The position numbers and the translations under genes are program-made. This document shows positions 35,638 to 64,000 of a stretch of DNA of 64,000 nucleotides, piece by piece. The notes below the pieces were generated by a model. The model saw only the letters and a list, made by a program, of their open reading frames with translations. It had not been told where the DNA came from and did not search any database. The DNA is from Nitrospinales bacterium (GTDB lineage Bacteria > Nitrospinota > Nitrospinia > Nitrospinales > VA-1): NCBI GenBank assembly GCA_965205835.1, contig OZ242182.1, positions 1,935,246 through 1,999,245 on the forward strand, read 5' to 3'. The stretch's first letter is position 1. Each line of letters opens with the position of its first letter.

Positions 35638-38156
35638 TTATACCTTCTCTTCCAACGACCCTGGAATTTTCCGAAAGCTGGCAACAAGTCCATCAAAAGA
35701 CTTCGGTTTATATTTCCTGAAACCCTCCTCGTCCACATATACGAAGTCGTATATTACGCCTGTCCGCACCTTATTAACGTCTTCGCACCACTGCTTAAGC
35801 CGTTCCATCTTGGGCGGCAAATTCCAACTCTAAATGACTATCACCAACAATTTTGTTAAAAATACTTTTTTGGGGAACAATGTAATCCTGTTCCTTGACG
35901 ACAAAGGGTCGGGTTTTTCTCAACTTAATGGTGTCTCGAATTTCAGCACCGCCCCTATCCTGAACCATCAAGTCGTTGATCTGCCTTTTGAAAGTTTCTA
36001 TCAAGGTTTTAGTAGCCTGCAACTCAGACAAGTTTCGCAGGGTGTTGAGATTTTCAAGATCAACCGGCTTTTCAAATAATTCATCATGGATAAACGATTT
36101 TACTTTCCCATACAAAACATCATAGCCACTGACCAGCCTCAACTCTTTCATAATACCTTGGGTGAAATACCCCACAACCGAATGGTAATCCGCAACCTCT
36201 CCAGAATCCAGCAGGGTGGTATGGCTGATTTTACCTGTAGTAATGTCCCGGAATACTATTTCACGTTGCTCTTCCGCACTGAACGTTTTGTAGCCAACCT
36301 TTTCATGACCAAAATTCCCAATATCAAGGCCATCCAGGTTTTTATAATCTCGATAAATCCTTGGGCTTAGAACAGGAATTTCAATGGCAAGTTTTTCCAT
36401 ATCCTTGCTTGTGTTTTCATTATCTACTTCAATAATAATCGGCGTTTTGGGTTTAGTTCCTCCGCCCATTGGCTCGCGCTCAAGTTCAACACCTTCAGAC
36501 TGAATGGATTCCACAAAATCCATAAACGCGTCAGTCCCCACCACGCTGACATATTCCTCTACATTGTTACCGGGATACATTTTCCTAAGACCCCGGCCCA
36601 AAGTTTGCTCCGGCAAAATATTGCTTTGAGCAACATAAGCACGCAGTCCTACAATAGTGGTAACATTCTTCACATCCCAACCTTCTTTGAGCATTAATAC
36701 TGAGACGATGGCTTTGTAAGGGTTGTCCCAGATATCAATCTCATTAGCTTGTTTGCGTAGCTTTTCCAACTCATCCTTATTTTTTCCGGTCGTCGCTTCG
36801 CTGATTTCACCGTTGTTTTTAGTGTGAATCACCAGCACGGCATCTTTTAAATCAGGACAGGTTGCCTCAAGATATTCAGCCACATCGTCACAGTTCTTTG
36901 TGTCGTCCGTCATGACAAAGAGAATAGCTTTCTTATCCAGCTTTTCATGTTCCACATAGGCTTTGCGCCATTCCTCAACACCCAAGTTCAGGTAGTCCGC
37001 ATATTTCTCCGTATATCCGGAGCTTTGCCGCTCGGAAAGCCTGGCGCGGCTAGCAGCGTCTGGCAAAACCGGATGCTTGACAACGTTCTGAGAAATGGCT
37101 TCTACCAGCGGATAATCCGAAACCGTCTGGACAAAGATCGCACCGTTGTTGTGCCTAGGTGTTGCCGTTACATCCACCTGTAAAGATAGAAACCTGTCTT
37201 TGTGTTTCAAACGATTATGAATATCCTCAATCGACTTGAACCACGCCATGCGACTGTCATGGATATGATGCGCTTCATCATTGAGTATAACCAAGCTCAT
37301 CAATATCGCGAACAATATCTCCCAGATCGACCTTGGAGTCCGTAGTCGCTCCCGTGGGACGCTTGCCCAGAAAGTAGTCCGCTGTGTCGTCATCATCGAA
37401 AGACGGCTCAACATCATTGCCGGAATAAATCCGTTGGATATTGGTCAGGAAAATATTACCGGTCTTTCGGGCAACCGCTACATCATCCTGAATATGCAGA
37501 GTCAGTTGAAAATCATCACGCCAGTTACGGCCTTCAAAACCGTTATCCGGCAATACCGGGTCGTCAAAGAAAATACGCAATCCGCCAAAATCCTTACGAA
37601 TCCGGTCCAGGACGATGATATTAGGAGCAATCACCAGGAAATTACGCGCCAGTTCAGAACCTTCCTCATAGAGCTTATGGAAATAACACCATGCCAGGAT
37701 GAGGCTCAAGACCTTGGTCTTGCCGGAGCCGGTTGCCATCTTGAGAACAAGCCGGAGCCAGTCCTCATCAAACATACCGGAAGATATGGCACCAGAGCTA
37801 TCAAAACGTATAAGGTCGTATTTATCCTTGGCCTTGGCAACATCGTAAAGATAGATGACCGTTTCCACCGCTTCACGCTGGGCGAAATAATATTGAAAGC
37901 CTGCCATCGTGCCGTCTGACTTTGGCAACAAGTGCTCCGCCTTAAACCACCACTCCAAAAGAGTAATGCTGGTAGCCGTTGCCCCTTCATAGCCACTTTC
38001 CCGCCAATCCATTACCTTTTTACGCAGTTCATTTACAAGAGGTGGTAATAACTTCTCATAGCTCGATTTCCGCAAAACCTCATCGGCAGGAAACCACCGA
38101 GTTTTCGGGTCAAGCATAACGTGGGGAGAATCAGGAAAGTCAGGATGCAGGGCCAT
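35638..38156 (-). pseudogene. res: type III restriction Res-like helicase subunit, disrupted (locus 1)
   Basis: Three consecutive ORF pieces. Piece 1 is 37278..38156 (Walker A MATGSGKT). Piece 2 is 35795..37417 (DEAH box LNDEAHHIHD). Piece 3 is 35638..35820 (C-terminal tail ...KMERLKQWCEDVN...). The pieces are joined by a 1-nt frameshift near 37291-37292 and a second frame change near 35800-35820. Confidence 0.7.
38015..38156. repeat. 142-bp direct repeat, copy A (functional 5' end of res)
   Basis: Aligns without gaps to 39046-39187 at an offset of 1031 nt, with 4 mismatches, all transitions. Confidence 0.95.
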
Positions 38157-38165
38157 TGCGAAATA

Positions 38166-38585
38166 CTATTTAGGCAGGACGGTGGCAACCAGTATGCCAG
38201 TGAATTCAATCAAGTCGTCAGCATGTTTTTTAATCACCATCTCTACTTGTTTGCAATCAATATCCCGATACTGGTGAGTGACGATATTTCTAAATCCCAC
38301 CATGCCTATTAACTTTTTTTCCAGCTCGGCGTCTATGATGTTCGCTTGCCGGAGCAGGGTAAAACTCTCGGCACTTGTGGGCGGCAATCCTAATTTTTTC
38401 AAGCGAATCACATGATTCGCCATGTCAATACACTGCTCACAGGCTCTTTGCAAATTAACGATAATCGCATCCTGCTTATAAAAATCATCGGCGAAGGTTT
38501 TTTGCGATGGCATGGTGTAATAATCCCGCGCTTGCTTTATACACCGTTCTACGCTGGCTTTTTTCTGTAAGAGAATGTCAGACAT
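38166..38585 (-). CDS. hepT: HepT (DUF86, HEPN) toxin
   Basis: 139-aa ORF with the Rx4HxY motif in FRNIVTHQY. It overlaps the upstream MNT gene by 8 nt. Confidence 0.88.
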   Translation of the reverse strand: MSDILLQKKASVERCIKQARDYYTMPSQKTFADDFYKQDAIIVNLQRACEQCIDMANHVIRLKKLGLPPTSAESFTLLRQANIIDAELEKKLIGMVGFRNIVTHQYRDIDCKQVEMVIKKHADDLIEFTGILVATVLPK

Positions 38586-39027
38586 CGTAAAATCTACCGT
38601 CTCTCAAACCGCTTTCAACGATTTCCCTGCGCTCATCGTTCAGTTTTTGATAAAAGGACAGTATCAACATTTCAAACTCATCAGCTGCGTACTTATCGGC
38701 ACAGTAAATACGCCGGTCGGCGGCGATAACTTCCTTACATAGAAGCACCGAAACCGTACGCAGTTCAATCAAATCGGCATATTCTACCTTTGCCGCCGCC
38801 GCGACCTCGTCCGAGAGGCGTGACCACGTCAGGCGGTCAAGAGAGTGCACCGTTGCGGGCGGGAGTAGTACGGCGATGTCCAGGTCGCTGTCCTGACGCT
38901 GACCTTCCGTTCCCCAAGTGCCGTAGAGATAGATGGCCTGGGTATCCGGGTAGGCAGCAAGGATGGGTTGGGCAAAATTAAGTTGAGCCGCCCCATCCAT
39001 TATCTGTCGGCTCGTTTGCTTAAGCAT
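38578..39027 (-). CDS. mntA: MNT-type nucleotidyltransferase antitoxin
   Basis: GTWGTEGQRQDSDLDIAV matches the GSx10DxD-type NTase motif. The ATG at 39027 (MLKQTS...), which has an upstream GGAAAGGGG, is preferred. The ORF-track start at 39063 lies inside the duplicated res fragment. Confidence 0.85.
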   Translation of the reverse strand: MLKQTSRQIMDGAAQLNFAQPILAAYPDTQAIYLYGTWGTEGQRQDSDLDIAVLLPPATVHSLDRLTWSRLSDEVAAAAKVEYADLIELRTVSVLLCKEVIAADRRIYCADKYAADEFEMLILSFYQKLNDERREIVESGLRDGRFYDV

Positions 39028-39045
39028 CGGACTGATTACCCCTTT

Positions 39046-39187
39046 CCTTTTTACGCAGTTCATTTACAAGAGGTGGTAATAACTTCTCATAGCTCGATTT
39101 CCGCAAAACCTCATCGGCAGGAAACCATCGAATTTTCGGGTCAAGCATAACGTGGGGAGAATCAGGAAAGTCAGAATGTAGGGCCAT
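39046..39187. repeat. 142-bp direct repeat, copy B (orphan duplicate of the res 5' end)
   Basis: About 97% identical to 38015-38156. It retains the res ATG (39187-39185) but would encode only about 53 aa before a stop. Confidence 0.95.
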
Positions 39188-39737
39188 AAGCTAACCTAAT
39201 AGTTTTTTTGTACTGAAAACTCTCACCCTTTAGCTGCGACATTCTTTCAGGGGTGTCGTTACAACTTGCATTAGCGGGTTGTTTAGGATTTTGTTTGTTT
39301 ATATTAATCCACCTTATGCTGACAAAATGTGTCTTTTTGATGGCCTTTTGCAGGAAGCGAGGGCGACTAAAAAATTGTTGGCCTATGGCAACACAGTAGT
39401 CTATCACACATCGTGCACCTCGCAGTTGTTTTTTAGCTTTATCGCCACCGCGCTTGGATTTCTTTAACTCGATAAAAATTATTTCCTTTTCATTCACAAC
39501 CACATAGTCCGCACGTTTACATATTCCCTCCTTGTTTCCGCAATTAAGAATCTTCTCAGGCGATGGGAAAAGATCCGCTTTTAATATAAGGGTATTGTCA
39601 GGCAACCCTTTTAGGTCAACAACATACGATGATCCACTTTCTTGTTCTTTGAGTTTTGCTTGTCCGTTGTGTACCGGGACCAGTGCGTCCCCATTCAATA
39701 GTTGTTTCAACAATGTAAAGTCACTTATTATCATCAT
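39171..39737 (-). CDS. small hypothetical protein with PD-(D/E)xK-like motif
   Basis: The ORF track gives 39171..39767. The ATG at 39737 or 39734 is preferred and overlaps the upstream ATPase stop. It contains CKRADYVVVNEKEIIFIELKKSK, a D...E-x-K arrangement like the restriction-endonuclease fold. This is a motif-level inference only. Confidence 0.55.
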   Translation of the reverse strand: MMIISDFTLLKQLLNGDALVPVHNGQAKLKEQESGSSYVVDLKGLPDNTLILKADLFPSPEKILNCGNKEGICKRADYVVVNEKEIIFIELKKSKRGGDKAKKQLRGARCVIDYCVAIGQQFFSRPRFLQKAIKKTHFVSIRWININKQNPKQPANASCNDTPERMSQLKGESFQYKKTIRLAYGPTF

Positions 39738-41120
39738 CACCCCACAAAATGGCATCCTGAATTTCATTCATCTCATTGATCGTCTCATCAAAGCTGCGTG
39801 CCTCAATCCCAAGCTCTGGATCAATTTCCGCAAGCACAAGCGTTTCGCATCGGCTTCTTCTTGTCTGGCCTGGCTGCTTAATTAAAGCCTTTTCTGCAAT
39901 ATAAACCCTGATTTTTTCACAATCCAACAGTTCCTCCGTCCGATAGCCTTCCTTCTCGGCGATCTGCTTCAGGTAGGGTCTGTCCTGATTCAGCATAATC
40001 AGGGTATTGAGTTCCTTAACGATGTAGTCGCTGTGGGTGGTGATAAAAATCTTGATGCCCAGATTCACACCAAGCGTGCGAAAAGCCGCGCAATGAAACG
40101 CTGATTCTTCGGGTGCAGATTCAATTCCGGTTCATCCACTATCAGCATGTCGCCGTACTCGGCGACATGGCGTAAATAAAAGCCTATGTCAAGCAAAGAC
40201 CGCACCGCGCTGGAACTTTCGTCCATCGCCAGCTTGACGTACTTCTTTGAGGGTTTGAAATAAATCGTGTCGTTGCTTCCGGCGATGTATTCACCGCCAA
40301 CAATATCGGCAAACTCATTCAGGATTTCCGGGTATTTCTTGCGAATAAAACTATCTTCCTTGGCAATGTCCTCAAGCTGACGGATAAAGTTCACGTTAGC
40401 TTTGACCGGCCAGGCATAGTCCTTATAAGATTTGAATAACAAATCTAATGGCTCTATGTTTTGGTCAGGCCGGCTCATTTCTTCCAGCAAACGGTTGCGG
40501 GAAAAATTCAGTTCTTTACGAAAAATCACCGCGCCGGTGCGTTCTGCACTGGCAATGAAGGGGTTTGGGAAAAGTCGACCGAAGATAACTTCAATAACAG
40601 CTCTTGAAACACTTTCCTTGATCACACGAGAAGGCAAGATGTTTTCTTTCCCCTTATCTACCAGCAATGAGACGACCATATCCGTTTCTTCCTTTGATTT
40701 GGTCAGTGACAGTTCAGCTTTTCCGAGTCTGATTTTATTTTCAAAAGCCAAACCTATTATCGTTTCTTCTGTCATTGTCAAATCCACTTGAAACCGGGAA
40801 CCTTTGAAACGATCAGCTTTAGAGGCAAAGACAGTATCCAGCCTTTCGCTGTATTCCTGACAACCACGCTCAAGGATGCTGCTTGCCTGCTCCACATAGT
40901 ACGCAAGATCAATCCGTATGATGCCATCTTTCAACAGGTCGCTAATCTGCTGGTCTATGTCCCTAACTTTCAGCATCCTTTTCCAAGATTGTAGGAAGCC
41001 AAACAGTGCGTAAGTCGCATAAGTTTTTCCGCTATTGTTGTCACCGCAAATGATTGTCAAGTCGCCCAGTTCAAATTCCGCCTGCTTCAGAACGCCAAGA
41101 TTTTCTACCTTTATTTTCAC
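39721..41120 (-). pseudogene. ABC-type (AAA_15/AAA_21-like) ATPase, split by a frameshift (locus 1)
   Basis: 40065..41120 carries Walker A CGDNNSGKTY, ASAERTG and Walker B MLIVDEPELNLHP. 39721..40068 continues with ...NLGIKIFITTHSDYIV (His-loop) in another frame. The junction lies in TTGGTGTGAAT at about 40062-40072. The GTG start overlaps the mod stop (GTGA). Confidence 0.65.
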
Positions 41121-43399
41121 ACCCGCACCTCCACTATCTTCATTGTATCATTTCCAAAAATATCTACCACTTTCACCGCGACCTTCCGCCGTCCTGGCAC
41201 ACACTCATGAAACACGCTTCGCGTTTCCAGTGACCGGTCTTTTTTCGTGCGGAAGGACTGCCATTCGTTTTCAAAGACATAATCACCGGTCCAGACTTCT
41301 TCGGTCTCCCCGCTTTCCTCGTTTTGGACGCGGACAATCTCCCGCTTGGATTCAAAGTCAAAATCCACCGACCAGTAATCAATCCAATCGGTCCATTCTT
41401 TCGTCAATACCTCACGCGTAACGATCCCGTTCTTATCCTTACTGATCTTGATGACCTGGCCCTTGTCCACAACCACTTTAGCTTTACTTTTCTTCAGGCT
41501 TTCATCGACCCCCTCGGCGTCCTGGGAATAAAAAACGGAGAAATCGGTCAGTTCAATGGAAATCCACGCAAGTCCCCCCGGTTGAGCCTTTTGTCGCAAA
41601 CTATAACCCCCCTTGCCCCCCTTATCAGGGGGGAATTGGGTGGAAAGTCCCCCTGACAAGGGGGATTTAGGGGGTTGGTATTGGATATGCGGCTTGATCT
41701 CAATGAACGATACATCGTGGAAGACCACTTGATTCTTCTCCACCGCCCGCTTGTCGAAAACATCACGGGGAATGTATTTCATCGCCAAGTCAATACCCTT
41801 ACTCTTCGCTTCTTCCTGAATATTGGGGAACAGACCCATCTCGAATTCAAAGCCGAGAATATCTACTTTGGTGATGTGTTTTTGGCGGCACTCCAAGATG
41901 ACCTCCTCCACAAACAAACGAGTAACCGGCAGATTGACCGGCCCCACCGCTACCAGCCGTCCGGCCTTTTTGCCCTGAAAGGTATTGAACTGGCTCACCC
42001 CTTCAGCACGGTAGGCGTGCAGAATGAGGTTTGTAAAATCTTTTTCCCTTGTTTCCAGTTGCTTTTGTTTCTCAGCTTCGCGCAGGTTGGGATTCACGCC
42101 GATATGGTGCTGACGTTCATACTTACCGAGATTAAGGATTTCAAAAGCCCGCCAGCTTTTATCCTCTTTCTTGAGTTGACGCTGTACGCCGATCATACGC
42201 TTTCGGGTTGTGTGGATAGCGAATTTCCCGAGGTCGGAGCCGATCCATTTCCGGCCCAGTTTTTCGGCTACGGCGGCAGTGGTGCCGGAACCGCAAAAGA
42301 AATCGGCGACTAGATCGTTTTCGTTAGAGGAAGCTTTGATAATACGTTCTAACAGGGCTTCGGGTTTTTAGGTGGGATAGTCTATTCGTTCTGCTGAAGT
42401 TCGACCAACCATGTCTATGGACCAAACATCACGCGCATTTACAAGCGTGTACCATCCTGTTTGATCTTCGAACTCTTCAACACCTTTGAAGCGATATGGT
42501 TTGAAGCCACGGTTATAAGATTTTTCTTTTGGTACATTGAAAATGGACGCTCCATTTTTAGAATAGAACCAAATTGTGTCATGTTTTCGACCATATCGTC
42601 CTGTAGTTGCACCACCAGATTTGTACGACCAGATTACTTCATTTATAAAATTCTTCTTCCCAAAAATTTCATCTAGTACAAGCCGCAGATAACTATTCAC
42701 CCGCCAATCACAATGAACGTAAATACTGCCGTCATCGGCGAGTAAATCCCGCATCAGGGAAAGCCGTTCATAGATCATGGCAATAAAGGAATCCGCGCCC
42801 TTGCCCCAAGTATCACGGTAGGCAATTTCTTCCAGGATGCCGGGCTTTTTGGTGAAGGTCTCAACCCCCCCCCTCAATCCCCCCTTATCAGGGGGGAGGG
42901 ATGAAGGGATCTCGATATCCATACTGAAATCCGCTCCCACATCAAACGGCGGGTCGATATAGATCAACTTGATTCCGCCCTGCGCCTCAATCTCTTCCCG
43001 CAACGGCCCGTTTTTCAGGGAAGATAAAATCAGTTTGTTATCGCCCCAGATCAGCTTGTTGTTCCAGCCCGTAATCTGCCTGCCGGTCTGCTGGTCAAAC
43101 ATCTCTGTTTGCAGTTTGACAATATCTTCCGCGCGCGGCTCATCCACCTGCTCGATCACCTGAAAAGGCAGGACCACATTATCCACTTCGCTTGTTTTGC
43201 CGTTCCATACCAACTCCACTTCCCGCTTATCCTCAAATAGCAGGAAGCGATATTTTTCCGGCAAATGTTTCCCCGCTTCCAGAAGCTTGATAATGTCGCG
43301 GATTTCATTATCAGCCAGCTTCAGCGGCCCCTCGGTTTTAGATGGCTTTTTAGTGTTTGTCATTCCCGCGCGCTTGGAGGTGTTGGAACAAAAACCCAC
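41117..43399 (-). pseudogene. mod: type III-like N6/N4 DNA methyltransferase (Mod), interrupted by an in-frame TAA (locus 1)
   Basis: 42368..43399 carries motif IV IYIDPPFDVG. After the TAA at 42370-42368 the same frame continues [43 protein letters not shown] (motif I) and runs into ORF 41117..42196, ending ...[22 protein letters not shown]. The probable start is M13 (43363). Confidence 0.75.
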
Positions 43400-43865: not shown

Positions 43866-44387
43866 TTAATGTCGGCTTACCCTGGAGAACTCCGTGATCG
43901 CGTCGGCCACCGTGATCATTAAAGTCACAGGGTCTAAAGGAGAAACTCGAAAACCACACCGTTGATAAAAGGCTTTTGCCTCATCATCCAGGGCATGGAC
44001 CAGGATAGCTCTTATTCCGGCAATTTCCGCGGCTTGAACAATTCTTGATATAGCGTCCCTTAAAAGGCCGCGCCCTATTCCGCCTCTTTGATATTTTTGA
44101 TCGACCGCCAAACGCCCCATAATCATAACCGGGATGGGGTCGGGCATATTGCGTTTGATTTTTCCAGAGGCTTTTATTGACTCTATTGAACCAACCGCCA
44201 AAGCATAAAATCCAACAACCTGTTTTCTGACGCAGACAACATAGGTTCGGGACGCGCCTGTTTCTTCATTGCGCAAGGCGCGTTTTTGAAGCCACTCATC
44301 AAGAACCGACTTACCGGAATCAAAAGTTTTAAAGTTGTGGCGGGGTTTTAGCTTTTCAGGAGGGGTTATTTCTTTTTTTGAAACCAT
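43866..44387 (-). CDS. GNAT-family acetyltransferase toxin (TacT-like)
   Basis: 173-aa ORF with the acetyl-CoA site QRGGIGRGLLRDA, immediately downstream of a DUF1778-type gene. Confidence 0.85.
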   Translation of the reverse strand: MVSKKEITPPEKLKPRHNFKTFDSGKSVLDEWLQKRALRNEETGASRTYVVCVRKQVVGFYALAVGSIESIKASGKIKRNMPDPIPVMIMGRLAVDQKYQRGGIGRGLLRDAISRIVQAAEIAGIRAILVHALDDEAKAFYQRCGFRVSPLDPVTLMITVADAITEFSRVSRH

Positions 44388-44399
44388 TGATGAGAAGGC

Positions 44400-44696
44400 T
44401 CAACTTTTCCAGGGCGGTGGTGTGTTGAGCGCACGGTTTAAAAGAGGATTGTCTTTTGGGGATTGATCCAAGACTTTTAAAAAGCGGTCAAACTTTTTTT
44501 GATCGAGAAGAAAGTGCCGGTTATCCAATAAAATATTGTTGGCCTCTTTACAGGCGGCCTCCAGCATGAACTCGGACCGTTTTTTACTCGTTATCTTCGC
44601 GGCCCGGTCTATCAGGTCCCGTTGTTGCTGAAGAGCACGAATATTAATAGAAGCACTGCGGCGAAACGTTTTCTCCGGGTCTTTGGTTGAGGGCAT
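44400..44696 (-). CDS. DUF1778-family (TacA-like, RHH) antitoxin
   Basis: 98-aa ORF (...INIRALQQQRDLIDRAAKITSKKRSEFMLEAACKEA...) ending 12 nt upstream of the GNAT gene. Confidence 0.82.
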   Translation of the reverse strand: MPSTKDPEKTFRRSASINIRALQQQRDLIDRAAKITSKKRSEFMLEAACKEANNILLDNRHFLLDQKKFDRFLKVLDQSPKDNPLLNRALNTPPPWKS

Positions 44697-55573: not shown

Positions 55574-57982
55574 GTGGCAAAGGCTAAAAAACCGATTGAA
55601 CAATACGAACACAAAGGTAAGAAGCGCAGGAACAACCCGCCTGTAGGTCTTGTCACTCCCACCAGCGACAAGGAATCCAAAAAGAAGAAATATGCCTACG
55701 ACCCGCACATTGAACCCAGTTTGCAGTGGGCAGGGAAATCTGAGCATACCAGCTTTGAAGTTCCCACTGTCTCCCTGCATGTCCATGAACGTATTGACCC
55801 GAAGACGATCATGGAGGCGGTTAAAAAACGCAATGGTAACGACCATAAGCAGGTAGGGCTTTTTGCATCGCCAGAAGAAAACCCGCCGTTGAGGGAGGCA
55901 GTGGATTTTTACTCGCACACTCACGGCTGGAGCAATCGGCTGGTAGCAGGCGATAGCCTGCTGGTCATGAACTCCCTGCTGGAAAAAGAAAGCATGGCGG
56001 GAAAGGTGCAAATGGTTTATATAGACCCACCCTACGGCATCAAATACGGCTCCAATTTCCAGCCTTTCGTCAACAAACGCGATGTCAAGGATGGCAAAGA
56101 TGAGGATTTAACCGCCGAGCCGGAAACGATCAAAGCCTTTCGCGACACCTGGGAGCTGGGCATTCACTCTTACCTGACCTATATGCGCGACCGCTTGCTA
56201 CTGGCACGAGAATTGTTGAGCGAGAGCGGTAGTGTGTTTGTGCAGATTTCGGATGAGAATGTGCATCATATTCGGGAGATTATGGATGAGGTTTTTGGGA
56301 CGGAAAATTTTATCAGAGCAATCTCATTTGTCAAAACAGGAAGCATGGTTTCAAACGTATTGGGGAGGACAAGCGATTATTTAATCTGGTACACAAGAGA
56401 TAAAAATAATACTCGATATAGACAACTATTCTTGGAAAAATTTCCCGATGATTTTTATAGCAATGTTGAACTATCTAATGGCACTATTCGAAAAATAACA
56501 AAGGCAGAGAAATTAGATATGTCTCTCCTACCCAGAGGGGCAAAGGTCTTTCAGCTTGTTAGCCTTGAAAGTGCTGGGCCTGCTAATCAAGATACGCCGT
56601 TAGAGTTTGAGGGTGAAATTTTTCGCCCAAATAGAAATAGGCACTGGTCCTTGGCTTTTCCGGACGGTATGGAGACACTGAAGCGAACAGGGAGAATGGT
56701 AAAAGATGGTGATAAACTACGCTGGAAATACTATATCGACGATTATCCGATCAAGGTACTATCGGAAATTTGGAATGACACAGCAGGCTTTAGCCCAGAT
56801 CAAAAATATGTTGTAGAAACACGCACAAAAGTCATCCAACGCTGTATGCTGATGACCACCGACCCTGGCGACCTGGTGTTTGACCCGACCTGCGGTAGCG
56901 GCACCACCGCCTTTGCCGCCGAGCAATGGGGGCGAAGGTGGATCACCTGTGATACCTCTCGGGTAGCATTAACCCTGGCCAAACAGCGGCTGACGACCGC
57001 AACCTTTGACTACTACAAACTCGCCCATCCTGATGAAGGTGTCGGCAGTGGTTTTGAATATAAAACCGTGCCCCACATTACCTTGAAATCTATTGCCAAC
57101 AAAGAACCGCTCGCTACTGAAACCCTTTACGATCAACCCTTCAGAGACAGCAAAAAGAAACGGGTGAGCGGTCCCTTCACCGTGGAAGCGGTACCCGCCC
57201 CGGCAGTGAAATCGCTGGATGATATGCTGCCAGATACCCCACCGCCTGCTGATGTCTCCATCGTCCGCTCGGGCGAAACTCTGCGCCAAAGTGAATGGCG
57301 CGATGAACTATTACAGGCCGGCGTGCGTGGCAAAAATGGCCAGATGATTTTGTTTTCTCGTGTTGAACCGCTTTCCGCAACCCGTTGGCTCCATGCCGAT
57401 GCCGAAACCGGACCCAACGATAAAGGTGGGGACACAGTTAAGGAAGAAGATGTGATTTATGGGAATCCTGAGCGGGTAGTCATTTCATTTGGCCCTGAAC
57501 ACGCCCCTCTGGAACAAAAACAGGTCGAACTGGCATGGCAGGAAGCACGGACTTTAATTCCCAAACCAGGTATCATCATCTTCGCGTCCTTCCAGTTTGA
57601 TCCGGAGGCGGCGAAAGATATTGATAAATTGACCATGGATAAAACTGGAATGACATTCCTTAAGGCGCAAATGAACACTGACCTTTTGACAGACGATTTA
57701 AAGAAGAAACGGGCAAGTAATCAATCCTTTTGGTTGATCGGGCAACCTGATATAGAACTCCGTGCCATAGACAAGGGAGAGCATAAAGGAAAACTAGAGG
57801 TGGAAGTGCATGGGTTTGATTATTACAACACCAGGACCGGAGCCATCGAGTCCGGCAACACCGCAAAGATCGCCCTTTGGATGCTGGATACCGATTATGA
57901 CGGGCGGAGCCTATATCCACGGCAGGTGTTTCTCCCGATGTCGGGGGGGGGGGCGGCTGGTCCCGATTGGCGAAAAACCTGA
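55574..57982 (+). CDS. mod: type III-like N6/N4 DNA methyltransferase (Mod), C-terminally truncated at a poly-G tract (locus 2)
   Basis: GTG start, with GGAGG whose 3' end lies 6 nt upstream of the GTG. Motif IV VYIDPPYGIKYG precedes motif I VFDPTCGSGTTAFAAEQWGRRWI (beta-class order). The ORF ends 26 nt after the G11 tract. The conserved tail ...GWSRLAKNLKAEIDEELIEAYRGTVSLPFETGKHKQVAVKIVDDRGIESLRILEVGE is encoded out of frame at 57955-58128. Confidence 0.85.
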   Translation: MAKAKKPIEQYEHKGKKRRNNPPVGLVTPTSDKESKKKKYAYDPHIEPSLQWAGKSEHTSFEVPTVSLHVHERIDPKTIMEAVKKRNGNDHKQVGLFASPEENPPLREAVDFYSHTHGWSNRLVAGDSLLVMNSLLEKESMAGKVQMVYIDPPYGIKYGSNFQPFVNKRDVKDGKDEDLTAEPETIKAFRDTWELGIHSYLTYMRDRLLLARELLSESGSVFVQISDENVHHIREIMDEVFGTENFIRAISFVKTGSMVSNVLGRTSDYLIWYTRDKNNTRYRQLFLEKFPDDFYSNVELSNGTIRKITKAEKLDMSLLPRGAKVFQLVSLESAGPANQDTPLEFEGEIFRPNRNRHWSLAFPDGMETLKRTGRMVKDGDKLRWKYYIDDYPIKVLSEIWNDTAGFSPDQKYVVETRTKVIQRCMLMTTDPGDLVFDPTCGSGTTAFAAEQWGRRWITCDTSRVALTLAKQRLTTATFDYYKLAHPDEGVGSGFEYKTVPHITLKSIANKEPLATETLYDQPFRDSKKKRVSGPFTVEAVPAPAVKSLDDMLPDTPPPADVSIVRSGETLRQSEWRDELLQAGVRGKNGQMILFSRVEPLSATRWLHADAETGPNDKGGDTVKEEDVIYGNPERVVISFGPEHAPLEQKQVELAWQEARTLIPKPGIIIFASFQFDPEAAKDIDKLTMDKTGMTFLKAQMNTDLLTDDLKKKRASNQSFWLIGQPDIELRAIDKGEHKGKLEVEVHGFDYYNTRTGAIESGNTAKIALWMLDTDYDGRSLYPRQVFLPMSGGGAAGPDWRKT
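57943..57953 (+). repeat. G11 homopolymer (candidate contingency/phase-variation tract) inside mod
   Basis: Counted directly: tc-GGGGGGGGGGG-cggctgg. G12 (or G9) joins the upstream frame to the 58-codon downstream frame ending at 58128. Confidence 0.9.
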
Positions 57983-58124
57983 AAGCCGAGATCGACGAGG
58001 AGTTGATAGAAGCCTATCGGGGAACTGTATCCTTGCCTTTTGAAACCGGCAAACACAAACAGGTAGCAGTTAAAATAGTGGACGACCGTGGAATTGAAAG
58101 TTTGCGGATTTTGGAGGTGGGTGA

Positions 58125-60821
58125 ATGAGCAGTCAAAATTCATACAAGGGCGCACGATTTTATAAGTGCGCTTTACAGGTTAACTCGTATCGCTATGCGG
58201 AATATCGAGGTAAGACACCACAGGATGAGAGCACTTACAATAACCAAATTCTGGAGCAGTGCAAAACAAATAATATCAAGGTGGTTGGGTTAGCTGATCA
58301 CGGTAAAGTAGAAGATTCGGAATCGTTGCGGAGTTTGTTGCGGGGAAGGGATATCACCGTATTTCCCGGATTTGAAATCGCAAGCTCTGAAAAGATTCAC
58401 ATGGTTTGTCTTTATCCTGAAGAAACAATAATATCAAAGCTCAATCAGTATCTTGGGCAGTTGATGGGAACTAACACCTCTGAGCTTAAGGAAGCATCCA
58501 CATATCCATCATCGCTAAGCTGCGAAGAAATTGCAAGTGCTGTTCTAAATAATCAAATAGGGTTTTGGTATGCAGCACATATGACAGGAACAAATGGTTT
58601 GCTCAGCTTAAGTCGCACGGGTGGTAATTATATTCACCTTTGGAGAAAAAAAGATTTAGTGGTTGCCGGACAAATCCCCGGGAAAACAGACGATTTAGAT
58701 GTCGAGCAAACCAAATTAAAGAGCTATAAAGATATTATTGAAAACAAAAACCCTGACTACAAGCGAGACAAACCCATTGCCATCATCAACGCTAAGGATA
58801 TAGAGCAACCTGAAACACTGGCGCATCCTTCCGCTTCTTGTTTGATTAAGATGACCGAACCCAACTTCGATGCATTCAAGCAGGCATTCATGGATTCGGA
58901 ATCTCGCATTCGCTTAAATCACCAAGCACCGGAACGTCAGTATTCATCTATCAAATCCATAAAGTGGCAAGGTGCTGGATTTTTTGAAGATAGTGATATC
59001 ATATTTTCTAAACATCTCAATACTATTATTGGTGGTCGTGGCACAGGTAAATCGACCATAATAGAAAGCATACGCTACGCTTTGGACTTGCCAACTCGCA
59101 AGGATAATAATGGTAATAAGTCGTTGGAGGTTTTTCGTAAAAACATACTCAATAATTCACAGGTTATTTTAGAAGTTTATTCAAAAACGCAGCAAGGGAA
59201 CTGCTATACAATCAGCAGGCGTTATGGCGAAGCACCGATAGTTAAAAATAATCAGGGAGAAGTTTCTCATTTAATACCAAGGGATATTCTGCCAGATATT
59301 GAATTGCTGGGACAAAACGAGATTTTAGAAATTGAAAAGGATGAAGATGCCAAACTGTCTCTTATTGACAACTTTCTGCCAAATAGCGATAGATTTAATA
59401 CTGACATGGCTGAAATTAAACGTAGGTTGGCAGATAACAGAAATAAGTTGATAAAAGCGAATGAGGAGCTTGAACGACTGGACGAGGCCATCAGCAAAGA
59501 AGACAAACTGAAGGAAAAAGTAACGCAATTTAAAAAGCTAGGCGTAGAGGATAAGTTAAAGAATGCTAAATTGATCGAAAAAGAAAAGATCATTCAAGCA
59601 AAAATTAAAGAACAGTTTGATGCGGTTGAAAAATGGACAAAGAGCTATCAATCAATATTTGACTTGACGTTTTTGCGAGAAACTGATCTTGCGGAGCTTC
59701 CCAATGAATCAAGCATGGTCGCAACGCGGAAAATTTTTGAGGATTTACAAAAAACACTCAGTGACCTCATTGAACAAGCTAATAAAGAATTACAAAACGC
59801 TAAGGAAAAGTATCAAGAAGCACAATCACCATGGCAAGAGAAAGCGGAAAAAATTCGTACTGATCTGAATGAAGCGATTACCCAACTGCCCGGGCAGGCA
59901 GGAAAATCTGGCAAAGAATTAGGAACGGAATATACAGACATCATTCAACAATTGACGCTAATAGAAAAACAAGGGCAGACACACAAGAATCAGAAGAAAA
60001 TAGTTGAAGCGATTGAACTTGAGCGAACAACTCTGCTGGAAGAATATCGAAATACTGCTTTCAATTATTTTAAAACTATGGATAAAAAGGTTAAAAAACT
60101 AAACGAAAGCGACCTAAAAGACAAAGTAAAAATTGAAGTGAATCGCTGTGGAAACGTGGATTCTCTAAAAGATTTTCTGCTTGATATTGAGGGCATTGGC
60201 GAGTCTAAAATACAATGGTTAAATGAGGAGAAAATAGAATTGGATTTGGTGGAATGGTCACAATGGATAAAAGAGAAAAATTCTGTTGCTTTTATGGAAA
60301 AATACCAAGCATACGGATTAACCAGAGGCGTTGCAGACAGGCTGATTAGCGTGAACATATCTAAACGGTTGGAATTGGAAGAGATTGAGCTGAAAGATCA
60401 AGTTGGTATTAAACTGAACACGGCTCACGAGAATAGTGCCCCCTACTATATACCGCTTGATAAGTTATCAACAGGTCAAAAATGTACGGCTATCTTAAAT
60501 TTGCTGCTACTGAACCCTAATGATCCTTTGATTATTGACCAGCCAGAAGATAACTTAGATAACGCTTTTATCGCCGAACGTATTGTGCGGGATTTAAGAA
60601 AGCTCAAAATCAATCGGCAATTTTTGTTTGCCTCCCACAACGCCAACATACCGGTATTTGGCGATGCCGAGTTAATTGCAGTGTTAGATAGCAAAGAGGG
60701 AAAAGGGCAGATTAAAAATATCGGCTCTATTGATAAATTAGAAGTGAGCAAGGATGCAGCGGAAATACTGGAAGGCGGAGAAGCGGCTTTTAATATGCGA
60801 AAAAACAAGTATGGTTTTTAA
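58125..60821 (+). CDS. PHP-like N-terminal domain fused to an SMC/Rad50/RecN-type ABC ATPase
   Basis: 898-aa ORF. N-terminus GARFYKCALQVNSYRY...GLADHG...FPGFEIASSEKIHMVCLY (PHP-like). Walker A IIGGRGTGKSTII. A long K/E-rich coiled-coil-like middle region. LSTGQKCTAILNLLL, Walker B PLIIDQPEDNLD and FASHNANI. Confidence 0.8.
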   Translation: MSSQNSYKGARFYKCALQVNSYRYAEYRGKTPQDESTYNNQILEQCKTNNIKVVGLADHGKVEDSESLRSLLRGRDITVFPGFEIASSEKIHMVCLYPEETIISKLNQYLGQLMGTNTSELKEASTYPSSLSCEEIASAVLNNQIGFWYAAHMTGTNGLLSLSRTGGNYIHLWRKKDLVVAGQIPGKTDDLDVEQTKLKSYKDIIENKNPDYKRDKPIAIINAKDIEQPETLAHPSASCLIKMTEPNFDAFKQAFMDSESRIRLNHQAPERQYSSIKSIKWQGAGFFEDSDIIFSKHLNTIIGGRGTGKSTIIESIRYALDLPTRKDNNGNKSLEVFRKNILNNSQVILEVYSKTQQGNCYTISRRYGEAPIVKNNQGEVSHLIPRDILPDIELLGQNEILEIEKDEDAKLSLIDNFLPNSDRFNTDMAEIKRRLADNRNKLIKANEELERLDEAISKEDKLKEKVTQFKKLGVEDKLKNAKLIEKEKIIQAKIKEQFDAVEKWTKSYQSIFDLTFLRETDLAELPNESSMVATRKIFEDLQKTLSDLIEQANKELQNAKEKYQEAQSPWQEKAEKIRTDLNEAITQLPGQAGKSGKELGTEYTDIIQQLTLIEKQGQTHKNQKKIVEAIELERTTLLEEYRNTAFNYFKTMDKKVKKLNESDLKDKVKIEVNRCGNVDSLKDFLLDIEGIGESKIQWLNEEKIELDLVEWSQWIKEKNSVAFMEKYQAYGLTRGVADRLISVNISKRLELEEIELKDQVGIKLNTAHENSAPYYIPLDKLSTGQKCTAILNLLLLNPNDPLIIDQPEDNLDNAFIAERIVRDLRKLKINRQFLFASHNANIPVFGDAELIAVLDSKEGKGQIKNIGSIDKLEVSKDAAEILEGGEAAFNMRKNKYGF

Positions 60822-60836
60822 GGATGTTAGTACGAG

Positions 60837-62036
60837 ATGCTAAAAAGTAAACTGTTAGAACTCCTTAACCAAGGGGAAGGACCTAAACTTGAATATAAGC
60901 AGGATAGTATCCGCCCCGAGTCGCTGGCGAAACAAATAGTCGGTCTTGCTAATATGAATGGCGGTCAAATTCTAATGGGTGTTGAAGACGATGGTCGTGT
61001 TAGCGGCATTCAAAGAGAGAATTTTCAAGAATGGTTGATGGATACGGTTGTCGCAAAATATGTTCACCCTTTTATCTTGCCAGACTATGAAGAAGTCACC
61101 TTTGAAGACAAAAAAATAGCAGTTGTGGAAATCCCACCGGGCAACAACAAGCCATACATGGTTAAACACAACGACCGTGAGGACATCTATGTTCGCTACG
61201 GTAATACCTGCCAATTGGCAACACGAGAACAGCAAGCTAGATTATTCGCTACTGGCGGGCTTTTGTCGGCAGAAAAATTTCCTGTACTTGGTTCCACAAT
61301 TGCAGATTTGGATGAACGACGCTACAAAGAATATTTCCACGATATCCTAGAACATCCGCGAGCAGATGATTTGCAAAAATTGCTTATTGACCATAGCTTT
61401 CTGGTGGGTGAGTCTCAAAATTTAAGCTGTAGCTATTTTGCCTATGCCTTGTTTGCGAAAACACCCCAAGTAAAGTTGCCACAGGCTGGACTAAGACTCA
61501 CCGTTTATGATGGAGATGACAAGGATTACAACACTCTGTTTGATAAAGATTTTAACATCCCTATGGTGGCGTATCGTGGCTCCTCAATATCTGACCCCAT
61601 TGAAAACTCGTTGCATGAAAATAGAGATTTTCTGGAATACATTAGCCACGAGAAGCTGGAACAGATGACCCGTAAGAGAGTATGGAATTACCCCAAAGAA
61701 GTAATAAGAGAATTAGTGATCAACGCACTCATTCATCGAGACTGGACAAAGCAGGGTTCTGTGCGCGTTGTTATTTATGCCAACCGCTTTGAAATAACCA
61801 GCCCCGGCGCATTACCAAACGGTATGACAGTGGAGAAAATAAAAAATGGCGTGTCTGAACAACGCAATCCATTGGCAGCTAGAGTTTTCCGAGATTACGG
61901 TTATCTGGAACAGCAAGGAATGGGCATTCGGCTCAAAGTCATTCCGTTGATGTTGGAGCACAACAGCAGGGAGCCCGATTTTGAATCCACTGAAGACCAT
62001 TTCAAAGTAACACTATGGAGAAGACAAACAAACTAA
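60837..62036 (+). CDS. AlbA_2 (Schlafen-type 'divergent AAA') plus HATPase_c_4-like protein, putative nucleic-acid-binding regulator/sensor
   Basis: 399-aa ORF. N-terminus LLELLNQGEGPKLEYKQDSIRPESLAKQIVGLANMNGGQILMGVEDDGRVSGI. C-terminus ELVINALIHRDWTKQGSVRVVIYANRFEITSPGALPNGMT...RNPLAARVFRDYGYLEQQGMGI. Confidence 0.75.
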   Translation: MLKSKLLELLNQGEGPKLEYKQDSIRPESLAKQIVGLANMNGGQILMGVEDDGRVSGIQRENFQEWLMDTVVAKYVHPFILPDYEEVTFEDKKIAVVEIPPGNNKPYMVKHNDREDIYVRYGNTCQLATREQQARLFATGGLLSAEKFPVLGSTIADLDERRYKEYFHDILEHPRADDLQKLLIDHSFLVGESQNLSCSYFAYALFAKTPQVKLPQAGLRLTVYDGDDKDYNTLFDKDFNIPMVAYRGSSISDPIENSLHENRDFLEYISHEKLEQMTRKRVWNYPKEVIRELVINALIHRDWTKQGSVRVVIYANRFEITSPGALPNGMTVEKIKNGVSEQRNPLAARVFRDYGYLEQQGMGIRLKVIPLMLEHNSREPDFESTEDHFKVTLWRRQTN

Positions 62037-64000
62037 CCATCAACTCTCCTTATGAAGAGCCCTCTCATTATTTGAAATATGACCGGGAGAAGCGCCTGTT
62101 CTCTAAAGAAGAGGGTCGGCGGCGTGCTGGATATGTAGTTGCCACCTCAGGTTCCAAATCTTTTGATGACCCCGGACAATTTGTTCCACTTCTACTGGTC
62201 AATAAAATTCGCCCTCGCGTCAAAGCATGGCGGGAAGCCGGGTATCCTGGGGTTACTGGAATAACCAAACGTTTGCTTGAACATTGGAAAAACGAAGAGG
62301 AACGGGCTCACCGTCAATTCTTCTTCTGCCAGATGGAAGCAATTGAAACAATAGTCTGGTTGAATGAGGCTTCTTCTGCCAAAAAACAGGGAATCGACGT
62401 ACCTAGTGACGGCGGTCCTTTCACTCGCCTCTGTTCCAAGATGGCTACCGGCTCAGGAAAAACGATTGTTATGGCAATGCTGATTGCTTGGCAAGTCATT
62501 AACAAAATTACTTACCCGCAGGATAGACGATTCTCAAAAAATGTGTTTATCATCGCTCCCGGCTTGACGGTTAAAAATCGGTTGCGGGTTTTAAATCATT
62601 CCTGTGACGATAATTATTACGATGAATTCAACATTGTTCCTTTAGCCCTAAGAGGAAAACTGCGGCAAGGGAAAATATTGATCCATAATTGGCACAAGCT
62701 GAATTGGGAAAATGAGGAAAAAATTAAAAGTAAAAAAGGTGTGGATAAGCGGGGAGCCAAAAGTGATTGCGCTTATGCTCGGGAAGTTTTGGGAAATATG
62801 GCCAACGCAAAAAATATTCTGGTCATTAACGATGAGGCGCATCACGCCTGGCGGGTCCCCGCAGAATCTAAAATAGCAGGGATCAAAAAGGAAGACATTG
62901 AGGAGGCTACTAAATGGGTAGGAGGCCTGGACCGCATTCATAACGCCTGTGGTATCATGACCTGTTACGATCTTTCGGCCACCCCTTTTGCTCCTTCTGG
63001 GAAAAAAGCGCAAGAAGAAGCCCTGTTTCCCTGGGTGATTAGCGATTTCGGATTGAACGATGCGATAGAATCTGGATTGGTCAAGACACCCAGGGTGGTT
63101 GTGCGTGATGATGCCCTGCCCGACACCAAAACTTTTAAATCAAAACTATATCATCTTTATATAGCATCCGAAGTTAAAGATGATTTGAACAGAAAAGCCG
63201 AGGAATATGAGCCACTACCCGACCTAGTATTGAACGCGTATTATTTATTGGGGCTGGACTGGAGAGAAACCGCACGGGATTGGAAAAAGAATGGGTTTAA
63301 AGTTCCGCCGGTAATGATAACCGTAGCCAACCGAACTGAAACAGCTGCACGAGTAAAATACGCGTTCGATAAATCAAAAATTAATATCGAAGAATTATCA
63401 AATCCTGATTTAACCCTTCATATTGATTCAAATGTATTGAAGAAGGCGGAAGAGGTTGAGGAGCCCGTTACGGTTAATGGCCGTGATCAGAATTCTAAAG
63501 GGGATAGGGCTAAACCAAAACTTACCAGGCAGGAAATGGCGGAAAATCTTCGTCTGCAAGTTAACACGATTGGAAACATCGGGAAACCCGGCGAAAAGAT
63601 CCAAAATGTAATTTCCGTTGGCATGCTTTCAGAGGGATGGGACACCAAAACCGTTACCCATATCATGGGCCTGCGGGCATTTTCCAGCCAGTTATTATGC
63701 GAGCAAGTCGTAGGGCGTGGTTTAAGAAGAACTTCTTATGAAGTAGACCTGGAGACAGGATTATTTCAGGCGGAGTACGTCAATATTTTTGGCATCCCAT
63801 TCACTTTCCTTCCTCATGAAGAAGGAGACGGTCCTCCCCCTCCTCCCCCGTCGCCCAAGACCAAAATTGAACCAGTGCCGGAGAAACAATGTTATGAAAT
63901 TTCCTGGCCCAATATAATCCGGACCAACCGCGTGTACAAACCTGTTCTAGAGCTTGACCTGGATAAGGCACAACCCTTTAAGATGGATGCCACGGAAAAC
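62015..64000 (+). CDS. res: type III restriction Res-like helicase subunit (locus 2), 3' end beyond the window
   Basis: Absent from the ORF track because there is no stop in the window. Manual translation from the ATG at 62015 gives MEKTNKLTINSPYEEPSHYLKYD...SKMATGSGKTIVMAM (Walker A)...LVINDEAHHAW (DEAH)...SEGWDTKTVTHIMGLRAF...QVVGRGLRR. The frame is open for 662 codons to the window edge. It overlaps the previous gene by 22 nt. Confidence 0.85.
   Translation, partial: MEKTNKLTINSPYEEPSHYLKYDREKRLFSKEEGRRRAGYVVATSGSKSFDDPGQFVPLLLVNKIRPRVKAWREAGYPGVTGITKRLLEHWKNEEERAHRQFFFCQMEAIETIVWLNEASSAKKQGIDVPSDGGPFTRLCSKMATGSGKTIVMAMLIAWQVINKITYPQDRRFSKNVFIIAPGLTVKNRLRVLNHSCDDNYYDEFNIVPLALRGKLRQGKILIHNWHKLNWENEEKIKSKKGVDKRGAKSDCAYAREVLGNMANAKNILVINDEAHHAWRVPAESKIAGIKKEDIEEATKWVGGLDRIHNACGIMTCYDLSATPFAPSGKKAQEEALFPWVISDFGLNDAIESGLVKTPRVVVRDDALPDTKTFKSKLYHLYIASEVKDDLNRKAEEYEPLPDLVLNAYYLLGLDWRETARDWKKNGFKVPPVMITVANRTETAARVKYAFDKSKINIEELSNPDLTLHIDSNVLKKAEEVEEPVTVNGRDQNSKGDRAKPKLTRQEMAENLRLQVNTIGNIGKPGEKIQNVISVGMLSEGWDTKTVTHIMGLRAFSSQLLCEQVVGRGLRRTSYEVDLETGLFQAEYVNIFGIPFTFLPHEEGDGPPPPPPSPKTKIEPVPEKQCYEISWPNIIRTNRVYKPVLELDLDKAQPFKMDATEN

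Follow-up and report, generated by a model that had tools for sequence, protein, structure and literature searches.

In the 64,000-nucleotide (nt) stretch of the Nitrospinales bacterium contig OZ242182.1 that was analysed (assembly GCA_965205835.1, positions 1,935,246 to 1,999,245; hereafter the window), a type III-like restriction-modification (R-M) operon carries two large genes between its methyltransferase gene, mod, and its restriction gene, res. The first of these encodes a TrlF-family ATPase and the second a prokaryotic Schlafen protein, and we consider it likely that the pair is a self-contained, horizontally mobile module captured at the mod-res junction, the whole forming a layered defence with an exchangeable backup. 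As judged from sequence comparison, the junction in this R-M family is evidently a recombination hotspot, at which cargo is swapped and stacked through the conserved 3' tail of mod and 5' end of res. The locus is a fresh example of a known theme and not a novel kind of system.

The operon and its four proteins

The genes concerned lie at the end of the window:

55574..58128, forward strand: mod, beta-class N6/N4 DNA methyltransferase of a type III-like R-M system, 851 amino acids (aa) if the G tract within it holds 12 G (G12)
57943..57953, forward strand: homopolymer of 11 G (G11) in the 3' part of mod, -1 frameshift
58125..60821, forward strand: trlF-family gene, 898 aa, PHP domain plus SMC/Rad50-like ATP-binding cassette (ABC) ATPase
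60837..62036, forward strand: prokaryotic Schlafen gene, 399 aa, Schlafen/AlbA_2 RNase-type domain plus HATPase_c_4
62015..64000, forward strand: res, BPTD_3080 family, superfamily 2 (SF2) helicase-type restriction subunit, first 662 aa in the window

The four genes are tightly packed. With the tract read as G12, the mod TGA (58126-58128) overlaps the trlF ATG (58125-58127) in an ATGA at 58125-58128; 15 nt separate the trlF stop from the start of the Schlafen gene; and res begins at 62015, 22 nt inside the 3' part of the Schlafen gene, and runs past the window end. Two genes spanning 3.9 kb lie between mod and res, so that the layout departs from the adjacent mod and res alone of a type III system. 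In the syntenic Nitrospinales metagenome-assembled genome (MAG) OZ252246.1 (locus L001; other surveyed loci are likewise given L numbers), the same four genes alone make up an island between glnB and DUF374/lpxB, and the 3' end of res and the genes beyond the window were inferred from the syntenic relative L001/L083. A first-pass annotation had described the four-gene order, the overlaps and the motifs given below, all of which are confirmed at the sequence level, including the physical embedding of the two middle genes at overlapping or nearly overlapping junctions; the G12 frame by which it joined the end of mod to the ATG of the 898-aa gene is likewise upheld, since one added G yields an 851-aa Mod that aligns without gaps to its relatives.

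The flanking genes resemble those of type III systems to different degrees. Mod, whose open reading frame (ORF) starts with GTG at 55574, carries DPPYG (aa 151-155; 56024-56038) before FDPTCGSGTT (aa 436-445; 56879-56908), that is, motif IV before motif I, the beta-class order of N6-adenine/N4-cytosine methyltransferases found in type III Mod proteins, and it matches Pfam N6_N4_Mtase with 103.6 bits and the PADLOC model MTase_III PDLC03632 with 486 bits. Res scores 823 bits against NCBIfam NF046055 (BPTD_3080 family restriction endonuclease; cut-off 800), covering model positions 2-704 of 970 with the 662 aa available, and also matches Pfam ResIII; the PADLOC REase_III models give it 26 bits at most. 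The helicase motifs that had been noted in it are all present: motif I MATGSGKT (62441-62464), the DEAH box in NDEAHH (62828-62845) and motif VI QVVGRGLRR (63704-63730). The L001 orthologue is 89% identical and 928 aa long, and all 7 of 7 full-length Res relatives, L001 included, end in a PDF...LxLE[TV]KG nuclease motif of PD-ExK type, the C-terminus of the window Res lying beyond the window.

The 898-aa protein matches NCBIfam NF045780 (TrlF family AAA-like ATPase) with 505 bits against a cut-off of 350, its residues 8-897 aligning to model positions 1-944, and RefSeq applies the TrlF family name to E. coli and plasmid homologues also. Against the Ppl model NF042955 it scores 167 bits, far below the cut-off of 1000, with homology over aa 69-893, and the PADLOC Ppl model gives 131 bits, the best stretch being aa 74-370 only; on these scores TrlF is evidently a homologue of Ppl and not a member of the Ppl family. 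The protein comprises a PHP domain (aa ~1-265), an ABC head split by a helical coiled-coil region of ~240 aa (aa ~421-661), and a small inserted domain (aa ~668-752). The Walker A motif GGRGTGKST (59031-59057), the signature LSTGQK (60465-60482) and the Walker B motif IIDQPEDNLD (60531-60560) are invariant among 18 homologues and, with the helices predicted at 421-661 between the head halves, mark an ATPase of the SMC/Rad50 type. A model of the full-length protein (predicted local distance difference test score, pLDDT, 83) finds its best structural matches in the heads of MukB, Smc, condensin, JetC, Rad50, RecN and RecF. An OLD-family ATPase was also considered and rejected, as the matches are SMC/Rad50 heads with no OLD entry among the top 50.

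A fold search was needed to settle the PHP assignment, because searches with sequence only were negative or marginal: Pfam PHP has no match to TrlF at E<=0.01, a phmmer search of the PDB with TrlF returned no PHP match, and a sequence profile reached a PDB PHP protein at E=0.55 only. With an AlphaFold2 model of aa 1-285 (pLDDT 85), Foldseek ranks 1-23 are all PHP proteins (probability 0.91-1.00), among them RNase AM, PHP phosphoesterases, Pol III alpha and PolC, and the modelled N-terminal region has the distorted TIM-type barrel of the PHP fold. Residues D58-H59, E84, H92, H152 and N222/D225 of this domain are conserved. Fold search and motifs together bear out the combination of a PHP-like domain with a Rad50/SMC-like ABC ATPase that had been proposed for this protein. 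A literature search on the TrlF and BPTD_3080 family names found nothing relevant.

The 399-aa protein had been read as a Schlafen-type AlbA_2 protein with an HATPase_c_4-like domain, and both Pfam domains score above their cut-offs (SLFN_AlbA_2, 84.8 bits; HATPase_c_4, 78.5 bits). The family profile matches the structures of SLFN13, SLFN14, SLFN12, SLFN5 and SLFN11; EGPKLEYK (60876-60899) aligns to the ESxxxEFK of SLFN13/SLFN14, and GVEDDG to GVDD. The motif Ex4(E/D)xK, taken here as defined in bioRxiv 10.1101/2025.07.24.666596, is described there as the catalytic signature of Schlafen RNases and prokaryotic Schlafens. In the window protein the motif is intact within the Schlafen/AlbA_2 domain, as E14-x4-E19-x-K21, and among 17 family members E14, K21 and D51 are invariant and E19 is at least 90% conserved. 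These features place the protein in the published 'pSlfn-HisKinase' class; prokaryotic Schlafens have been shown to act against phages by cleaving tRNA, and 34% of them, more than have any other architecture, carry the HisKinase fusion (bioRxiv 10.1101/2025.07.24.666596).

The TrlF-Schlafen pair as a unit

Neighbourhoods of trlF were surveyed in the best 80 matches of pattern-based scans. The gene right after trlF is the Schlafen gene in 73 of the 77 informative loci, which span many phyla, usually at a spacing of 7-20 nt, and the percent identities of the two proteins vary in step across loci. Mod and Res of the window type flank the pair in about 9 of the 80 loci (L001, L002, L009, L012, L013, L014, L020, L045, which is cut by a contig end, and the window itself), and in 63 of the 80 the pair occurs without them. 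The embedded arrangement, for which the first-pass annotation had proposed such a survey as a check, does recur in several phyla, in MAGs labelled Nitrospinales, Gammaproteobacteria, Dehalococcoidia, Leptonemataceae and Bacteroidetes. In two further loci, L008 and L011, the pair is intact beside remnants of Mod, and in L011 beside a remnant of Res also.

The other settings of the pair are diverse. In L094-L097 it stands alone among housekeeping genes (CstA/YajQ; Ham1/YicC), a solo trlF is found on some plasmids, and in some contexts a small ribbon-helix-helix (RHH) gene runs 4 nt into the start of trlF. Immediately upstream of the pair lie methylases of the Eco57I/PglX type (7 loci), ResIII proteins (5), N6_N4_Mtase proteins (4), and type I HsdR and HsdS; immediately downstream lie ResIII proteins (9), PglZ (5) and HsdR (3), and classical type III Res is among the direct neighbours. 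By our own count of these best 80 matches, made with no background rate, an R-M or bacteriophage exclusion (BREX) gene is a direct neighbour in roughly 30 of the 80 loci, and in L035 the order PglX - TrlF - Schlafen - PglZ places the pair within a BREX operon. In E. coli, a trlF match is present in 58 of 5426 complete genomes, with a patchy distribution in integrase or BREX islands; one strain has the pair next to BREX-1, and another has it in an ssrA island, where a classical type III R-M system precedes it.

Several further observations concern these neighbourhoods. On several E. coli chromosomes the trlF match is in two parts, with an IS5 family transposase annotated beneath. In L038, L050, L055 and L056 a conserved protein of ~780-800 aa, with no Pfam match at E<=1e-5, is encoded right after the pair; upstream of the pair L038 has a full-length PglX-type methylase, and L050 a 109-aa PglX-like remnant. 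This ~780-aa protein may be an unrecognised BREX-associated component.

These distributions bear on the status of the two middle genes, which the first-pass annotation had taken for integral members of a type III-like R-M system. The two genes keep together in 73 of 77 informative loci, yet only about 9 of 80 have Mod and Res at the flanks; the pair also occurs alone, outlives decayed Mod and Res, and is absent from all 80 of the Res-anchored loci described below. Nor are the middle genes specific to type III systems, as had been supposed, since the pair also lies within BREX and elsewhere has type I or classical type III R-M genes as neighbours. The pair thus behaves as a stand-alone system inserted here, which is the outcome that the annotation had itself set against its claim.

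Cargo at the mod-res junction

A second survey was anchored on Res and covered 80 metagenome loci, in 70 of which Mod is visible upstream. The gap between mod and res is below 100 nt in 43 of these 70, typically 18 nt, so that the norm of the window-type Mod-Res family is an ordinary two-gene operon. The gap is at least 300 nt in 23 of the 70, and clear same-strand ORFs occupy it in 18 of those 23. The TrlF-Schlafen pair was found in none of the 80 Res-anchored loci, where the cargo consists of an AAA_21 ATPase with DUF4276, an AAA_15 ATPase with a ~190-aa partner, ImmA/IrrE with a DUF4411 PIN protein, an HNH protein, a YhcG/DUF1016 nuclease, PIN and DUF4258 proteins, KilA-N and Bro-N proteins, or DUF6978 with DUF1828. 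Such diverse cargo in 18-23 of 70 related loci sustains the view, already put forward in the annotation, that the architecture is modular and no chance one-off.

Cargo may also be stacked. L012 has the order Mod - AAA_21 - DUF4276 - 185-aa ORF - TrlF - Schlafen - Res; L013 adds a DUF5131 gene and L014 an AAA_15 ATPase. As a separate observation, the cargo of L102 (5946-9996) comprises a 771-aa protein without a Pfam match, a 73-aa ORF, and a 486-aa Schlafen/AlbA_2-HATPase_c_4 protein that is 27% identical to that of the window; the large partners of Schlafen proteins fused to histidine kinase-type domains (Schlafen-HisK) may differ in kind.

Separate histories of cargo and backbone

Bootstrapped neighbour-joining trees of TrlF and Res disagree on how the embedded loci are related. 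By TrlF, the loci L002, L008 and L009 form a clade with 100% support, which the window and L001 join, again at 100%. By Res, L002 falls at 100% among loci without TrlF (L177, with adjacent mod and res; L157 and L161, where the cargo is of another kind), L009 clusters at 100% with L012 and L013, and a clade uniting all TrlF-bearing Res sequences receives 0% support. Pairwise identities tell the same story: L009 and L012 share 75% identity in Res and 54% in TrlF, and L002 and L009 share 55% in Res and 68% in TrlF. L020, in which a distant TrlF (44% identical) accompanies a close Res (61%), represents a second embedding. A single ancestral insertion for all embedded loci is rejected by the conflict of the two trees at 100% bootstrap and by L020.

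L012 preserves a recombination scar. Its 185-aa ORF (9447-10001), placed between the two stacked cargoes, consists of Res residues 11-95 (87% identical) and Mod residues 1027-1123 (93% identical), as measured against L012's own Res and Mod, joined at a shared TKT; such a chimera is expected if two cargo-bearing operons recombined via the Mod tail and the Res N-terminus. Given the tree conflict, the identities and this scar, the cargo has a history distinct from that of the R-M backbone, and the junction behaves as a site of exchange.

Base composition is consistent across these loci. In all embedded loci the G+C content at third codon positions (GC3) of the TrlF and Schlafen genes is 0.33-0.44, as against 0.50-0.59 for Mod, whatever the host GC (38-49%). 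The low GC of the pair was considered as a sign of recent arrival in the window genome, an explanation rejected because the GC3 offset is equal in every embedded locus; being common to all of them, the low GC3 travels with the pair.

Alternative readings

The four genes might instead form one integrated system, with TrlF and Schlafen as subunits or obligate partners of Mod and Res, which would make the locus a new multi-gene type of defence derived from R-M; Res translocation or cleavage could, for example, pass DNA ends to TrlF, and Schlafen be activated only via the R-M complex. The tight or overlapping junctions in the window, L001, L002, L009 and L045 speak for such integration, as does the retention of the four-gene order across the MAGs named above, and the combination of one TrlF clade with at least three Res lineages suggests partner preference. 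We nevertheless regard this reading as improbable, given that 63 of 80 pairs do without Mod and Res and 80 of 80 Res-anchored loci do without the pair, that the pair has outlived its decayed neighbours in L008 and L011, and that unrelated cargo is accepted at the same junction and the pair is found equally in BREX and type I loci.

A different doubt arises from the state of mod. As assembled, its ORF stops at 57982 (802 aa) because the tract at 57943-57953 has 11 G, with the loss of the last ~58 codons and a distance of 142 nt from the mod stop to the trlF start. Relatives read GGGCGAAAAGGAC at the position of the tract, the long tract not being present in them, and L002, L009 and L045 have full-length, in-frame Mod orthologues. 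In L001, mod has suffered an independent 2-nt deletion ~30 nt downstream of the tract position (L001 ~9850-9871), which truncates Mod to 815 aa; two different lesions of the mod tail thus occur within ~60 nt in the related genomes of L001 and the window. These lesions, together with a second mod...res locus in the window that is disrupted in its Mod, ATPase and Res, and with the route of decay documented by L008 and L011, could signify a decaying island, in which mod is a pseudogene in the making and only the TrlF-Schlafen pair, or nothing, is functional. We find this very improbable. The loss is confined to the final ~58 of 851 codons, and all methyltransferase motifs lie upstream; Res is open over all of its 662 visible codons, and trlF and the Schlafen gene are intact. 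In the 58-codon tail, moreover, when it is read in the restored frame, 14 codons differ synonymously between the window and L001 and 5 by conservative non-synonymous changes, as against 2 synonymous and 16-18 non-synonymous in the other two frames, from which it follows that the tail was translated until recently and that mod, if inactivated at all, lost its function very recently, can regain it by slippage, or only seems inactive through an error of assembly at the long homopolymer.

The G11 tract itself may be a recent lesion, a switch that works by slippage, or a mistake of assembly over a long homopolymer. A phase-variable type III mod (phasevarion) has within its ORF a simple-sequence repeat that turns Mod on and off as its length changes; here there is, in one assembly, an out-of-frame G11 within mod that costs only the last ~58 codons. 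Across the 64 kb just two G/C homopolymers reach 8 nt, this G11 (57943-57953) and a C9 (42865-42873; G9 when the coding strand is read); each lies in one of the two mod genes, on its sense strand, an arrangement suggestive of slipped-strand switches.

That TrlF is a housekeeping repair nuclease like SbcCD/Mre11-Rad50, with the AlbA_2/HATPase_c_4 protein as a DNA-binding regulator and the adjacency to R-M genes a coincidence, is hardly credible: the structural matches to Rad50, SMC, RecN and RecF heads and the loci among housekeeping genes would suit it, but not the patchy spread in E. coli, the IS5-split copies, the occurrence in integrase and BREX islands and on plasmids, the frequency of R-M or BREX genes as direct neighbours, the homology of TrlF to the defence protein Ppl, or the conserved Schlafen catalytic motif.

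Several points weigh against the capture of a self-contained module as we propose it. All functions are assigned from homology and context. The stop/start overlaps, and a four-gene order kept down to ~53% TrlF identity, fit obligate integration equally well. The neighbourhood counts, drawn from best matches, are neither exhaustive nor unbiased and have no background rate of R-M adjacency to be set against. The canonical first HxH of the PHP domain is absent from TrlF, which has invariant C15, Q18 and N20 there instead, so that nuclease activity is plausible and not assured; and because mod is frameshifted as assembled, the function of the R-M part may be incomplete. Scans of the locus for promoters and terminators came out at or below shuffled expectation and are uninformative, so that co-transcription is assumed from gene spacing only.

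How the locus might work

If the pair is indeed a captured module, all four genes would be transcribed from the mod promoter and be translationally coupled. Mod would methylate host DNA, and Res, a putative SF2 helicase with a C-terminal PD-ExK nuclease, would cut unmodified invaders, as a first line of sequence-specific restriction. The ATPase head of TrlF may engage DNA ends or aberrant DNA, to be degraded by its PHP domain, by homology to Ppl and by analogy to Mre11-Rad50/SbcCD. Its Schlafen partner would be a second effector, of the abortive-infection kind, presumably cleaving tRNA or rRNA either in parallel with TrlF or downstream of it, as the regulated response to what TrlF senses. The pair could in this way serve as a backup layer without need for Mod or Res, and its position within an R-M operon would benefit it through co-expression, co-transfer, and protection when phages evade restriction.

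A bolder proposal, which we hold to be rather unlikely and offer tentatively, is that TrlF and Schlafen-HisK constitute a two-component 'restriction-failure sentinel' that has been recruited specifically to immunity based on methylation, namely to type I, type III and BPTD_3080-type R-M and to BREX. TrlF would sense DNA ends or stalled restriction and switch on the Schlafen tRNase, the mod-res junction would be a dedicated cassette-exchange site with the conserved Mod tail and Res N-terminus serving as its recombination arms, and the G tract might tune translational coupling into the cargo. If true, this would provide an activator for the commonest class of prokaryotic Schlafens, for which bioRxiv 10.1101/2025.07.24.666596 names none.

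Relation to known systems

The PADLOC models match the locus unevenly, strongly for Mod, at 26 bits or less for Res, by a partial Ppl match for TrlF, and only by partial Argonaute-associated matches for Schlafen; defence finders based on hidden Markov models (HMMs) could for this reason miss or mislabel such loci. Signatures of BREX (PglZ/BrxC) and of the defence island system associated with restriction-modification, DISARM (DrmA/DrmB), gave no PADLOC match for TrlF, Schlafen or Res at E<=0.01, and the best 25 of the 58 PADLOC matches of Mod are all to R-M or orphan methyltransferases. An assignment to DISARM, BREX or an Hma-like system is rejected, there being no signature components among these matches and the island, as seen in L001, consisting of four genes. 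The first-pass annotation had held the locus to be modular and, from sequence alone, not assignable to a named system; the recurrent modular architecture stands, and the proteins do prove assignable, to NF045780, NF046055 and pSlfn-HisKinase.

Classical type III systems (EcoP15I/EcoP1I) methylate an asymmetric site on one strand, and their ATP-dependent cleavage needs two inversely oriented unmodified sites. The window operon resembles them in having a beta-class Mod upstream of a Res with SF2 helicase motifs, for which a C-terminal PD-ExK motif is predicted from the full-length relatives; the two genes are adjacent in the 43 of 70 family loci noted above. It differs in the family of its Res (NF046055, 823 bits, versus REase_III at 26 bits or less), in its longer Mod (851 aa) with a conserved C-terminal tail, and in the two genes that part mod from res.

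Embedded backup effectors are known anecdotally from type I R-M operons, examples being PrrC of EcoprrI and the Rlo genes. BREX loci of thousands of taxa are reported to embed Schlafen-HisK-wHTH, OLD-ABC/TOPRIM, HEPN-MNT and PIN modules as backup effectors (PMC12839542). The window is like these type I and BREX loci in placing a predicted nuclease module of abortive type between methylase and effector gene, and the cargo of its family repeats the BREX repertoire: pairs with an OLD-type ABC ATPase, MNT/HEPN, PIN and Schlafen-HisK. Unlike them, its host operon is of type III-like Mod-Res character and the junction is an exchange site with the scar seen in L012; the window Schlafen, further, comes with TrlF, and the BREX paper (PMC12839542) nowhere mentions a PHP domain.

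Mre11-Rad50/SbcCD, Wadjet JetC and Lamassu share with the predicted TrlF structure the combination of a phosphoesterase nuclease with an SMC/Rad50-like head and a coiled coil. TrlF differs in uniting nuclease and ATPase in one polypeptide, in having a PHP fold in place of the calcineurin-like fold of Mre11, and in its short helical region (~240 aa); no zinc hook or hinge was identified. Operons of PHP-ABC and Schlafen genes may already be described in the 2020 work of Krishnan et al. on ABC ATPases in conflict systems.

The two partners also have closer counterparts. Ppl is described in a review as a PHP 3'-5' single-stranded DNA exonuclease that is held off by NTPs and triggered by 3'-OH ends (PMC12904381). 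TrlF is like it in an N-terminal PHP domain followed by an ABC-type ATPase and in its defence-island lifestyle, and unlike it in forming a separate NCBIfam equivalog (167 versus 1000 bits) with a non-canonical first PHP metal-binding motif; Ppl also works alone (PMC12904381), whereas TrlF almost always has a Schlafen partner gene. The hallmark of prokaryotic Schlafen nucleases is phage-activated tRNA cleavage leading to abortive infection. The pSlfn-HisKinase class, known from sequence and with a predicted RNase activity, agrees with the 399-aa protein in combining an Ex4(E/D)xK Schlafen/AlbA_2 domain with HATPase_c_4 and in its association with defence islands; the characterised prokaryotic Schlafens (DUF262-Slfn and the Ig-like RorSlfn5) are unlike it, being single-gene systems with other sensor domains. 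The preprint on this class (bioRxiv 10.1101/2025.07.24.666596) makes no mention of a conserved TrlF or PHP-ATPase partner gene.

Other elements in the window

The second locus of the window has the following position:

35795..43399, reverse strand: second mod...res locus, decayed, with Mod, AAA_15/AAA_21 ATPase, 198-aa ORF, MntA, HepT and Res

The first-pass annotation had reported that a layout of mod, ATPase, small protein and res recurs at 35.6-43.4 kb. The locus exists, as a decayed instance of the theme seen in the main operon: its genes are disrupted, by an in-frame stop in Mod and by frameshifts in the ATPase and Res, and MntA and HepT are present there too. Its Res is a distant relative of the BPTD_3080 family. 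The MntA/HepT type VII toxin-antitoxin pair (38166-39063, reverse strand) is intact within the otherwise decayed locus.

A G/C-rich palindrome, CCCCCCTGATAAGGGGGG, occurs at 41616-41633, 41648-41665 and 42879-42896, with a weak copy at 24014-24031; two copies are exact and one or two degenerate, where 0.01 matches are expected by chance. All copies except the weak one lie inside the decayed second mod, in frame as 'PPDKGG', and the palindrome could be an insertion like those of repetitive extragenic palindromes (REP) or miniature inverted-repeat transposable elements (MITE). Just past the second locus, at 43866-44696 on the reverse strand, are ORFs of 173 aa and 98 aa that by eye resemble a GNAT-toxin/DUF1778-type antitoxin pair.

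Implications

The commonest architecture of bacterial Schlafens is very often encoded directly after a gene for a Ppl-like PHP/SMC ATPase, and because of this position TrlF may be the sensor or co-effector of HisKinase-type Schlafens. Embedded backup effectors, previously catalogued for BREX and known anecdotally for type I systems, extend to a type III-like R-M family in which about a quarter to a third of loci bear cargo at the mod-res junction, its swapping and stacking being seen in the conflict of trees and in the Res::Mod scar. Current concepts are not overturned by these findings; the most useful leads that they offer are the pairing of TrlF with Schlafen and the cargo junction between mod and res.

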